Both the position numbers and the translations under genes were made by a program. The notes beneath the pieces are model-generated. The model was not told where the DNA came from and searched no databases. It was given only the letters and a program-made list of their open reading frames with translations. Positions 28,799 to 43,227 of a DNA stretch of 64,000 bases are shown one piece after another. Origin of the DNA: Botryllus schlosseri (Eukaryota); the NCBI GenBank assembly GCA_051294905.1, contig CM119372.1, forward strand, positions 38,752,001 to 38,816,000, given 5' to 3'. Each line of letters begins with the position of its first letter. Position 1 is the stretch's first letter.

Positions 28799-30003
28799 AA
28801 ATCAGTTGTTGAGCGTGTTTGTTAGGCTTTACTTTCTTTTTTTTACTTATCGGCACCGATTCCGATGGATACTGCACATTTTGTGGTTTCGTTTGATATT
28901 AATAACCTATGAAATCGTTTGGTTTTTTCTTCTTCTTATTGTTTGTTGGCACTGATTATTCGTGGATGCTGCACATTTTGTGGTGTCTTTTGACAAACTA
29001 GCCCAAATAAAGCGTTTTTGTGACGAATTCGAGGCTGAAACTATCTATTTAGAGGACGATGCCAAAACTGCCAAAAATAAAAATCAAAAAATGCCAAAAA
29101 TAATTTATTTTTGGCAGTTTTGGGATATGCCAAAAATAACACGGCCAGGCTATAACGTAAACTGAACGTGAACAAGGAAGAGATATTATACCATGTTCGT
29201 GATAGCACAAACGTCTGATTTTCAAATGCCATTGCTCATTATGACGTGACAAGTAGCCTATTAGCTTTGCTAGTGATTGCGTAAGAAGTATCCACAGTAA
29301 ACAGATATTCGATGTACGTACCCGCCGTACATTAGCGTGATTGCAAGAACACCCGCCGTGGTGTATCTCAGGTTATCAACACGTTTCACACGCCAGTACC
29401 TCGCAGCAGGATAATTAATCACCACTCTGCCTAGTAACAGTAACTTATGTATTGATGTTTGGTTATCCTTAGTTAACGCAGTTTGGCCGTTGCTGCTTGG
29501 CGAGCAGTAGGCCTATGTAGCTACGTACGTACGCCAGACAAAGATTTGAAATATTGTACTCGTCAAATAAAACATTAAGGCTTCCACAACGAAGCATTTA
29601 AAAATCAACAGCTGCTGATATATATCATAACCGAGCCGTTTTAGCCGTTTCTCGTAACGGCAGTTTGCAGTACATTATCTGTATTAAGTTAAGAAGAATG
29701 TTATTTTATCTTCTTTTTATTCTCATATGTCTCTTCTGAGCAAATACTAGTCACTGCTTGTACACTGCCCATTATCAGTTATAAATCCCCAACTGACTTG
29801 TTCTTTTTTGCACATTGATTGTGACTGTCTGGAATTGTTATGTGTTTCATATATTCTTTGTTAATGCTGCTATTGCTTTTCGTAAGATACATTCCGTATT
29901 AGCTTATACCCTGGTTCGTTACCACGTTAAGAGGTTATCTCATTTAAATAACCATTTACCCTGGTTCCGGCTGACAAGAAGATCGTCATGATCATATCGC
30001 CGC

Positions 30004-32419
30004 CAGACATGGGGTAATCGCGATTAGTAATCGTAATCGATTACGACGATTACAGCATTTTCAAGTAATCGTAATCGCAATCGATTACATTCGAAAAAAT
30101 TACGGAGTAATCGTAATCGACTACTTCCCATATCTAATCGATTTCTTTGTGAAAGAACGATTACTTTTTATTTGTACAAGGACTATGACACAAACTGAAC
30201 AATGAACATTCATGAACAAGGCTACCAGTTTCGTGATAGCACAAACGTCTGATTTGCAAACGCCACTGCTCATTATTACGTCAGAAGTAGCCTATTAGCT
30301 TTGCTCGTCATTGCGTAAGAAGTATCCACAGTAAATAGATATTCGATGTACGCACATTAGTGTGATTGTGAGAACACCCACCGTGATGTTTATAAGGTTA
30401 TCGACACGTTCCACCATGGCCATGGTTCCACACACCACCACTTCGCAGCAGGATAATTAATAACCACTCTGCCTAGTTCAAAATAGTAACTTGCGTATTG
30501 ATGTCTGGTTATGCATAGTTAAACGCAGTTTGACCGTTGCTGCTTGGCGAGCAGTAGGCCTATGCAGTACGTACGTACACCGGACAAAGATTTGAAATTT
30601 TGTACTCGTCAAATAAAACATAACGGTTTCCACAACGAAGCATTAAAAATCAACAGCTGCTGATATATATCATAACCGAGCCGTTTTTTCTCGTTTCTCG
30701 TAACGGCAGCTTGCAGTACATTATCTGCAACAAGTTGAAGACAGAATTCTATGTTCTCTGCATCTTATTCTCATATGATTCTACTTGAAACGGGCGTCAA
30801 TCGTTATTTCACAATTCTTACTCAACATTGGGCCCCGCCCCCATAGCCATGGGCTTATATACCATGTTAGCGTGGGTTGTAGCTGGAATCAGGACCAAAA
30901 CAGCAATTAGTCCCCCAGTCCAAATGTTGGTCTTTGGTCCCCATAGGGTGGTATTTCAAAGTTGAAGACTGGATTTCGTCAATAATATTGGTAAATGCAT
31001 TATATTACTATTAATTTTTAATCATCTCTCAGTACCCGATATTGTGAGATTTACCCGTAGAGCTGGGGGCACCTAATTCATAATTATAATGTCTGTTATC
31101 TTGTTATAATTACTTTAATGTATGTTGTTAATTCGTGACCTCCGGTCTGTTACATAATCAAAAGATATTGTAGTATACCGAACGTAGCAGACTGAAAGAA
31201 AAACTTTTGCGAGACGCACACTCAAATTGTCATGCCCGGGTGGCATCTGTATAGAGGGCTCAGATTGGGAGGATCGGACGATTCGTCACGCCCACCCAGC
31301 GCGGCTATTGACAATGGACACATACCATAAGTTTCGGCCTAGTTCTTTCTTTAGTAGCACACTTCGTCAAGTTACGTGTTGGTCGAAACTGCATGTCTTT
31401 TGGTGTGTCGTCGCACGATATTGACTGGAACCTAAATGCCTAAAATTACTATAAATTAGGGTTGCATTTAAAACAAAAAGCAATTTAAAGCGAACATGTA
31501 TGAAACAACGCCCTTGTTTTTAAACATATGTTTTTTTAAGCCATGACGTCACGAATATTCATTTGGGACGTCATAGAGGATTGACATTGACAATTGAAAA
31601 TATACAGGGTAAATATAGTTCCTTTGACGAAATATCTGTAATATAACTGTTGAAAAGACTATTTTGAGGGTCCAACCATCCCATATCGATGTACGTCGGC
31701 TAAATCGGGTGGTAGTTGTCCGTAGGCTCATACAAAATGTTTTTTGAAAAGTATTTACACAACTATAATTTTACAACTTAAAAAACACAATTTAGGTTTC
31801 TTGAATGCCTTTTTTTAAAACACTGTTTAAAGCATGTTTCGAACAGAGTGTTTTAAACAACTATTTGTTTAAATGCTACCACTATAAATTATGTATGCTT
31901 TCTTTCTTGACGGGAGACGTATGCATATCAAAATCAAGCTATCTAGAGAGAATTTCCAACCTAATTAAATCTCTCGAAAATACTCTATAAGTTATGTTGG
32001 TTTACGAAATACTTTTCAGCACCGTTCGTGCTCGTTCCCCACCCTATTGGGAAATTTGGGGTGCGGCAGTCATGGATCTGGCAAGAATGTAAATCGTTGG
32101 GTGCGATAAATTGTCCTTTATAAAAATGGACAATTGGTACATTATGACGTAACAAGAAAATGGCGCATCTTTTTTTAAAGGAAGTCTGTTATCTCATCAG
32201 GCCTCTTCAGCGCAATCCATATATTGTCTTCCAATGTAACTTCTAAGATGCAAAATAAATGTAATCGTGAGTAATCGTGATTACTTTTCCAATGTAATCG
32301 TAATCGTAATCGACTACTTCCTGATTTTGCTGTAATCGTAATCGTAATCGTAATCGCGTCATTCAGAAGTAATCGTAATCGCAATCGATTACATTCATGA
32401 AGTAATCACCCCATGTCTG
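30004..32419. mobile_element. Second GATTAC-family copy nested inside the first
   Basis: TIR cagacatgggg/ccccatgtctg; TSD atcgccgc/atcgccgg. Confidence 0.9.
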
Positions 32420-32527
32420 ATCGCCGGTATCAGCCAATACCGATAAACCACTGTTTTGTGTTAGTTAAATATTGCATATTTATATGAGTTCTATTTATTT
32501 TGGCGTCATCGGTTGACGAAATAAATA

Positions 32528-41086: not shown

Positions 41087-42222
41087 TAGGGTTACGATAT
41101 TTTTGTTTCACAAATTCCGGACGCTCTTCAGCGCCCACTAGCGGATTTCAAAATGAGGTATTAGCACATTGTCGATCAATATGACGTCCCCGCAGCAAAG
41201 CTTTATCTATCGACTAGAAGTGGTCACGATCCGGTTCAGGGGTATGTGATTGTGTGTTGTAACCAGGACCAAAATCATATTTTCAGCCGTGTACCACCCA
41301 AATGAACACTGATCTTGGGCCCACCGTACGGTAATCGATGCAACTTGTAGGGGCTTACTATATGCATCTGGTCGGTAAATAATTTGAATTAATCATGTCA
41401 ATAATTTTGGTTCTTCCATATATAACTATATAATGTTGATCCTCTCTTCGCCCACATGATCAGAGTTAGCGTTAGAGCTAATGGAGGATGATGACTTCGA
41501 AAATGCAAGAAACGTATAATTGTACATCGTTAAGTCATATCCATGTCGCACACTGAGCTATATAAACCGAAAAGATTATTATCAGCCTGATGTCGGTGCG
41601 CACTGCACCACCGAGCTATATAAACACCCCACATCCTGTGGTTTACAGCCTCCTATGGTCGCAACTCAATTTCCAATTAGAAAATGTTCCGTGGCCCAGC
41701 TCAAAATTTGATGAGCTGATTACTATGATTAAAGGTCGGCTCATTTGCCTAGACTTACTCACGGTCTAATCTCACTGAGCTGATTACGTTCAACATATGC
41801 GCGAACTCGAGAATAAAGGCAAACTACCCAAGGTTTAGAACCTCTATCTTTGAATAAAACATCCAAACGGCCTAAACTGACTCTACGAATATACCGTTAT
41901 CTTGTAATTGCGAGCACAATTAAATTATTTTTGTAAAGCAATGTAATTTTTATTTATTTTCGATCGCAGTTCTGGTGAGGGTGGTACCCCCCCATATTAA
42001 AACCAATATACGCGATAAGAAATCGCGCGCAGCGCGAAAAAATTTCATGTAGCATATATCTGCCCAAAAATAATATTGTTTATGTCGATTTACGAAAAAA
42101 TTATGACCTGAAGCCTTCAAAATTCCGGACATTTAGGCGTATTTTAGAAATTCCTCCCGGACGCAGTTTTAACAGTGAAATTCCGGACATGTCCGGGAAA
42201 TTCCGGACGTATGGCAACCCTA
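41087..42222. mobile_element. hAT Blackjack-like element nested in Academ
   Basis: TIR tagggttacgat/atggcaacccta; perfect TSD atctagtc. Confidence 0.92.
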
Positions 42223-43227
42223 ATCTAGTCATAAGTACACCGTTCAGTATTTCGATACCGAACGATTCAACAAATTCTGTATACTGTAATACTGGGTAAC
42301 ACACACATATATAGGCTTAAAACCAGTTCAGCAATTCCTTAAATACAGATCTAAGCCATGCAGCAAGGTCTAAAACGGTATTTTCTGTATCATTCCGTTC
42401 TATAAGATGGACACAATTGTACCGAAGTAAAAAGCAGCTATGACTCCAGCACGGCCTTGTGTGAGTTCATTGTCAATTGTTACTGAATGGTTCGTCGCTG
42501 TTTCACCATAATTTCTGATCCGTGGCATATGGATCAGCTTGGATCAGACCCTCATTTATCCAGGTAACACACTATGAGCAGTGGTTTGGGTTAATAAAGC
42601 CAACGATCCTGAGTTTCAACAATCCAACTGGAATGGCTGGATGAAGAGAATCAATGGTAATGATGCAAAACAGCGCGCGCAGATCGAGTTCCTTCCAGTT
42701 ATTGAAGGAGACCCTGATGACCTCAAAACCTTCTTCGCCAGTCTTAAAGAGTGCACACAGTGCGTTGGGGTAGCTATAGTGACCGTCGATCTTCCGATTC
42801 GACTGAAGCCTATATATATAATGAAGCAGACAAATTTACCAGTCATTCCAAGGTTGAGTGGTTTTCACCTATTGAAATCTTATCTTGGACCACTTGGTGA
42901 CAACATGGAATATTCTGGGCTACTAGATGTGATCCCGTTGATCTATGCTGGAAGCACAACAACAATCCACATCATGGATGGAGGATGTTTTGACAAGGAA
43001 ATCCCTCCTCACCTCCTCGTCGATGCAGCTATCTATCAACATACCATAGAAATTGCCGTAACTGAGGATAGGCGTGGTGACATGAAGTCCTTCATGGAAA
43101 AGGTGACTGGTGGGGAAATGGGAGCTAGACACTGTGACCTAGTAGGCTATTGCGAGTATTTGAGCGAAGGTTTGAAGAAACGTTCAATCGATTCATAAAA
43201 AGAGGAAGAACATCTGCCGGCCATCAT

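Follow-up and report, generated by a model that had tools for sequence, protein, structure and literature searches.

The present study analyzes short insertions at TA dinucleotides in 64,000 nt of the Botryllus schlosseri genome (contig CM119372.1 of assembly GCA_051294905.1, positions G000:C2:38752001-38816000, hereafter the window), with genome-wide searches covering the 495.5-Mb assembly in its 219 contigs. The window carries a long interspersed nuclear element (LINE) copy with a minus-strand reverse transcriptase (RT) open reading frame (ORF), an Academ-like copy, GATTAC-rich repeat copies and several non-autonomous transposons, together with 34 copies of two words: a 7-mer in which GGC or GCC stands between two TA, and a palindromic 8-mer in which GGCC does. 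An earlier note, made from the sequence without database searches, took these words for excision scars of a TA-targeting element. Patterns detected here are consistent with that view, and point to probable parents among pogo-type elements whose ends start with four G.

Insertions at TA in the window and in its repeat families

The 7-mer occurred 25 times (16 on the plus strand, 9 on the minus strand) and the 8-mer nine times, all seven of its positions quoted in the earlier note being among them; the note's counts by eye of about 25 and about nine proved exact. Expectations in the window, which has a GC content of 40.7%, were 4.6–8.3 for the 7-mer under Markov models of order 0 (8.3), order 2 (4.6) and order 3 (5.5), or 9.9 at order 4, and below one for the 8-mer (0.43–0.59 at orders 2–3). 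The 7-mer ranked first of 32 TA-NNN-TA classes and the 8-mer second of 136 TA-NNNN-TA classes. Genome-wide there were 131,669 copies of the 7-mer compared with 51,110 of a reversed control, confirming the enrichment that the note had proposed to look for, and the density in the window (0.39 per kb) was slightly over the genome mean (0.27 per kb).

Paralogues indicate that these words are insertions. In a local set of 345 kb (the window plus 281 kb of fetched loci), a TA-only paralogue existed for all 16 testable flank-clusters with GGC or GCC, as compared with 14 of 110 among the 62 remaining TA-NNN-TA words (Fisher p=2e-12), which supplies the excess over other 5–6-bp indels at TA on which the earlier reading depended. 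The 14 control positives were mostly low-complexity, tandem duplications or scar-overlapping, and one was a decayed scar. Five of six testable GGCC clusters likewise had a TA-only paralogue, in agreement with the suggestion that GGCC is a two-end hybrid scar. Compared with family consensus sequences, the three repeat families held 15 strict events, spread over 12 TA sites of which three had been hit at least twice with different inserts, and strict scars made up 8 of 13 distinct 5–6-bp insertions in the Academ-like family and 6 of 21 in the GATTAC-rich family. Because the TA duplication is exact, the insert is constant whatever the flanks, both orientations and a two-end hybrid form occur, and the same TA has been filled repeatedly in unrelated copies, the insertions are very probably excision footprints of Tc1/mariner/pogo-type (ITm) transposons.

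Frequent plain TA duplications were also present in the GATTAC-rich and Academ-like families (L002-L030 and L051-L070; 12 and 5 distinct events) and may be zero-base footprints or slippage. At one hotspot TA, the scar in four copies (G000:C2:13966211, C2:26850951, C9:8160629 and C9:2009654) is followed by altered downstream sequence, three of these cases fitting a short adjacent deletion.

Ten private scars were found against 1,819 private substitutions, or one scar per 182, which, taking 1,500 elements and a mutation rate assumed to lie between 3e-9 and 3e-8, corresponds to 5e-6 to 5e-5 per element per generation and implies an ordinary excision rate per element. The very high frequency of hopping envisaged earlier is therefore a relative one. 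The 19 young LINE copies (75 kb) held no scars against 1.0 expected, which is uninformative, and contigs from 4 of 10 read runs on window positions 1-20000 were swamped by repeats, with no 5–6-bp indel among the 12 indel rows listed (136 further rows existed). By extrapolation from listed matches, the genome holds scars on the order of 1e5, a share of which, whatever its size, was amplified within other repeats.

Sites of individual interest are collected in Table 1. Paralogous loci were the top of 40 scored matches for each host repeat (29 GATTAC-rich, 19 LINE and 19 Academ-like) and are biased to similar copies. The two sites that the note had placed in coding frames were indeed micro-insertions, the scar being the derived state and private to one of 20 copies in each case: at 38013 a tblastn search with the protein of an intact copy switches frame at 38014, and at 43143 the Academ-like family consensus frame is open across the position for 231 codons. 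The third site, claimed as a further independent one, was filled at 29254/30288 in all 29 fetched loci and both window copies, a few of them with substitutions, and TA-only in the window at 21591-21602 and in L045, a tally that is biased because the GATTAC-rich loci were retrieved with a filled query. Here the motif is already part of the repeat consensus, unlike at 38013 and 43143, and its derived status has midpoint-rooted support only. The site therefore reflects a single old event that a master copy carried along as the repeat multiplied, not a hit per copy. The names R4/Dong and Academ given to the host repeats were not themselves confirmed: the LINE is supported as far as an RT-bearing ORF of 1,237 aa, and for 43143 there was an Atlas lead to DUF6589-carrying clusters (33% of members).

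Table 1. Motif sites and other features, in positions of the 64,000-nt window
Feature	Positions	Strand	Basis
All 34 motif sites, span in the window	115..62033		For the 27 not itemised, empty paralogue not demonstrated; some chance or inherited
GGC scar private to LINE copy; frameshifts minus-strand RT ORF	38013..38019	+	Absent in 19/19 paralogues; frame change at 38014
GGC scar private to Academ-like copy; breaks consensus frame	43143..43149	+	Absent in 19/19 paralogues
Old scar inherited with GATTAC-rich repeat subfamily	29254..29260	-	Filled in 31 copies, empty in 2
Same inherited scar, second GATTAC-rich repeat copy	30288..30294	-	Paralogue comparison
Empty (TA-only) site, most divergent GATTAC-rich copy	21591..21602		Branch 0.12 against a median of 0.025, under midpoint rooting alone
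GGC scar with empty paralogue	10447..10453	+	Paralogue comparison
GGCC scar with empty paralogue	27407..27414		Paralogue comparison
GGC/GCC scar with empty paralogue	62027..62033	-	Paralogue comparison
ISL2EU-type non-autonomous element, AT duplication; used to exclude ISL2EU	10908..11394		Empty paralogues
TA-flanked CC-ended (Passer-like) non-autonomous element; control family, not parent	57074..57899		Flank profile differs from scars

Several other insertions were seen in or among these host repeats. Twelve LINE copies in the series L032-L044 are less than 1% from consensus, one of them with a 1,237-aa open frame, suggesting recent retrotransposition. A 310–333-bp insert resembling a short interspersed nuclear element, with target duplication, lies within LINE and Academ-like copies (window 37034-37356 and L064), and a 3.4-kb insertion bounded by terminal inverted repeats (TIRs) interrupts a GATTAC-rich repeat copy (window 25765-29154).

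Scar letters, target preference and a candidate parent

A genome-wide scar pattern matched 125,321 times per strand compared with 44,780 for its control, and the first 100 matches listed comprised GGC (34), GCC (31), GGCC (27), GGGCC (1) and others (7), with no GGGC or GCCC, a spectrum of G(1-2)C(1-2). The six-base two-end form GGCGCC occurred at 3,269 sites against 1,061 in the control, with 35 of the first 50 sites assigned to this class and seven more being a scar within a scar. Flanking bases were also restricted. A purine preceded and a pyrimidine followed TA in 23 of 24 half-sites of confirmed events, these being G/C in 16 of 24 (background G 0.21), and the base preceding TA in 166 scar half-sites was G in 87, A in 56, T in 13 and C in 10. 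In the local set there was no enrichment of three-base (TWA) duplications flanking the insert. A mirror test for CC-ended elements gave no excess in total (45,969 vs 54,869). Its composition alone hints at scars, CCGG making up 20 of 46 four-base forms, but the ends of the elements themselves confound this signal; in the local set an empty paralogue was found for 0 of 1 and 0 of 1 testable mirror-type sites, and the window excess of the mirror 8-mer was mostly one repeat.

A pogo profile matched 72 of 98 candidates in the genome, several with multi-copy open frames. Autonomous GG-ended copies are about 2.9 kb long with a 569-aa DDE_1 open frame and have derivatives of about 950 and 1,365 bp. 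Two fetched loci (L074/L075) are 3′ ends of the 569-aa family and terminate in four C before TA, so that the TIR starts with four G, and two end pairs of this family enclose DDE_1 (PF03184) matches. Its ends matched 501 times against 0 in the control, and GG-ended, TA-flanked ends including those of the ~950-bp family matched 2,337 times against 17; the filter for the latter drops about a fifth, and 2,337 ends correspond to roughly 1,450 elements. The ~950-bp family (L055/L063) shares 9 of the first 12 letters with the 569-aa family and shows TA target duplication when its insertion is compared with the empty consensus. The candidate transposase, as a partial protein, has a C-terminal PHD-like finger (E=0.0011, below the curated cut-off).

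The GG and CC letters of the scars match the termini of these GG-ended families, and the base before TA in GG-ended elements (G60 A29 T8 C3; hand tally of 100 listed) agreed with that in scars (p=0.52). In CC-ended, Passer-like elements it was G30 A32 T24 C14 by the same kind of tally, a mismatch with scars (p=3.5e-5) on which these elements were rejected as parents. At one TA of the Academ-like repeat a GG-ended element is present in L055/L063 and a scar in L062, and since L062 lies outside the L055/L063 clade, this reflects shared targeting and not descent. In one pogo end (L075:505-535) an extra C follows the two terminal G, which may record an excision that was begun, aborted and rejoined.

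It is probable that the insertions are repair footprints remaining after excision of these TA-targeting pogo-type transposons, which start with four G and would leave 2-nt GG overhangs. Insertion duplicates TA in a purine-TA-pyrimidine context, as seen for both elements and scars. Excision would then cut the non-transferred strand at a distance of 2 nt into the element from either end, so that each flank keeps a 3′ overhang of GG; a 2-nt stagger is favored because scars with three G or three C, expected from a 3-nt cut on these ends, are nearly absent. The two overhangs would be unable to pair with each other. End joining with one G:G overlap and fill-in could produce a heteroduplex that resolves equally to GGC or GCC, joining and fill-in without overlap could produce GGCC, and if both ends gain a C and come apart again before ligation, the resulting GGC overhangs might yield the same products or the rare GGCGCC. 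Once made, scars pile up neutrally, are re-hit and are amplified within other repeats. Independent trimming of GG overhangs was rejected as a route: it should make GC scars roughly as common as GGCC, yet none of five testable GC sites had an empty paralogue. Whether the case has a wider lesson we judge to be evenly balanced, namely that a 3-base footprint need not copy the last 3 bases of its element, with a GG-ended pogo element giving GGC/GCC when synthesis crosses the break over a G:G mispair, and so writing some 1e5 datable marks.

Alternative parents and sources

Several observations weigh against a GG-ended parent. A GGC-ended element with a 3-nt stagger offers a simpler account of the GGCGCC class and of why 3-nt scars outnumber 2-nt ones. 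Since a sibling family would have the same target preference, the match in flanks cannot tell the two models apart; the flank tallies moreover come from the first 100 matches of contig 1 only. An empty paralogue was found in only 1 of 12 testable GG/CC sites, besides the five GC sites without one. No transposase was linked to the commoner ~950-bp family, and among element ends extended by a single base C was not significantly favored (5 C, 3 A and 2 T, with 12 in the control). No pair of alleles or sister copies with element and scar was seen, and hotspot searches (6 and 0 matches, and a third with 26 empty and 1 scar of 27) yielded no extant element.

The competing parent would be a TA-targeting element, unfound or lost and probably a sibling within pogo, whose ends are truly GGC...GCC and are cut with a 3-nt stagger. 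Such ends would give GGC/GCC through a G:G heteroduplex, GGCC through a 2-bp GC microhomology and GGCGCC through full fill-in. We regard this parent as possible but rather unlikely. Although it foretold the GGCGCC class before the test in which that class was found (35/50 sites), no GGC-ended element was present in the 345 kb of local sequence, where five GG-ended element ends were seen. TIR scans of the window, in which the earlier note had also noticed no intact GGC...GCC element, and of the 281 kb of fetched loci found no TA-flanked GGC-ended element, nor did two genome-wide pattern tests, with pyrimidine-continuing ends unscreened. A pogo-like end pattern starting GGC gave 16 matches against 5 in its control and no family, and a purine-class scan for GGC ends gave 9,999 against 8,283, its recurrent words having fixed flanks. 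The GGC...GCC ends that the note had predicted were thus not recovered, and the best-matching candidate parents start with four G. A GGC-ended element would account for the scarcity of 2-nt scars and parallels the model for Sleeping Beauty, and the scar-free young LINE copies would fit a fading source, though not significantly, but scars are recent, being private to copies about 2% diverged. In the pogo table of PMC7386202, a GGC start belongs only to a TAA-targeting element from a fungus and to a degenerate Tigger end (5/5 matches).

An origin without any transposon, through templated or telomerase-like insertion, slippage, or selection for a protein-binding motif, appears improbable. The motif is near-palindromic, and in Phytophthora an abundant TA-NNNN-TA motif has been argued to be a transcription-factor site, but the insertions described here lie in dead repeats and coding frames, duplicate TA exactly without copying the flanks, and show both orientations, two-end hybrids and a transposon-like target preference.

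Most improbable is an ISL2EU/IS4EU element with an AGGCC-containing end: several intact THAP-DDE plus YqaJ families are present in the genome, and the L071 family (225-nt TIRs, 282 end matches) has an outer end resembling the scar, but a fixed AAT context accompanies 98 of 100 listed L071-family ends and 0 of 65 and 0 of 34 scar sites, and empty paralogues of a related ISL2EU-type element show AT duplication, as in PMC4482050, so that target context and duplication do not match the scars and this parent is largely refuted for the family tested (ends were located for two of three fetched families). The full-length ISL2EU element itself (L071:239-4932, at G000:C7:21475100-21480600) carries its THAP and DDE frames on the same strand, with the YqaJ frame convergent to them, and the genome holds many further DDE_Tnp_4/YqaJ pairs whose frames are open. 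A second ISL2EU-type element (L072:625-4873), with 22-nt TIRs and no obvious target duplication, lies in a ~123-bp tandem repeat.

Other candidates were set aside on their duplications or position. A hAT-like short element (L027/L070/window 63277) has a 7-bp duplication outside its ends in L070, the TATA duplication of Sailor does not fit, and short repeated words were internal to other repeats where checkable. Nested hAT-like non-autonomous elements also occupy window positions 41086-42223, 20325-21184, 12381-14871 and 52694-53640, most with a visible 7–8-bp duplication. Genome searches with the Tc1 profile (PF13358) gave 0 matches of 24 candidates and with the mariner profile (PF01359) 0 of 2, the latter with a silent control, so that absence is not shown, and a Pfam scan of 146 of the 320 local open frames revealed no transposase. 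This is then a 495-Mb animal genome with several intact pogo families and no Tc1/mariner profile match, at uncertain sensitivity.

Significance and relation to known systems

Excision is normally invisible in a single genome, and a fixed, searchable scar records it at scale. The scars provide a target-site map and a relative clock of DNA-transposon activity, and they mark a class of frameshifting mutation that is prominent in the Academ-like family (8 of 13 distinct 5–6-bp insertions). If the parent is GG-ended, footprints could not be read simply as element termini, and the scars would report end joining of non-complementary GG overhangs in this animal; the marks would form a fossil map of past insertions some 50–70 times larger than the surviving elements, and the same process may explain the same motif in other animals. 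The motif is abundant in fish and echinoderms. In such genomes, work on motif enrichment could take these words for regulatory sites.

Staggered cuts by Tc1/mariner transposases leave 2- or 3-nt element overhangs on the flanks, and end joining then produces TA-flanked footprints (10.1101/659086, PMC4378557), those of Sleeping Beauty and Passer being 0–4 nt from 2- or 3-nt overhangs. The scars resemble Sleeping Beauty and other Tc1/mariner footprints in the TA duplication with a few bases, here probably end-derived, the net +5-bp frameshift and the presumed end joining (10.1101/659086, PMC4378557, PMC2874221), as well as in two equal 3-nt forms that are told apart by the middle base, both 2- and 3-nt overhangs having been described. 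They differ in having other letters and 4-nt and 6-nt two-end forms, in being natural and present at about 1e5 sites genome-wide, and, under the best model, in a third scar base that is not the third base of the element. For Passer, a pogo element of the DD35D group, PMC9976928 similarly describes a TA target in a palindrome with G before and C after, and footprints of 0–4 bp, whereas CC-ended Passer-like elements here differ from the scars in flank profile.

Fot and Fot-like pogo elements (PMC7386202) share the DDE_1 transposase, and GG-starting TIRs are common in the group. Two tunicate Fot-like rows in that table (2.9–3.0 kb, 622–644 aa, TA duplication) are near the candidate in size but start with CC, and the GG-starting rows among the matches listed (70 of 99 GGG) are mostly from fungi, red algae and oomycetes with TAA or TAAA duplications, one amoeba row having TA. 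No excision data for GG-starting Fot or Fot-like elements were found in the literature searched. ISL2EU (PMC4482050) is intact in this genome and one family has an end like the scar, but it differs in AT duplication and fixed context. As whole words the three motifs occurred in five papers, none of which deals with transposons as far as its listing shows, and no report of genome-wide footprint insertions was found, although TA families with GG or GGC ends, or their footprints, may already be on record in Repbase Reports, subscription journals, figures or supplements; for ISRm11 the literature found was annotation-table mentions only. Taken against these systems, and with a parent that is plausible though unproven, the insertions very probably represent a lesion of a known kind, written in new letters and on an unusual scale.

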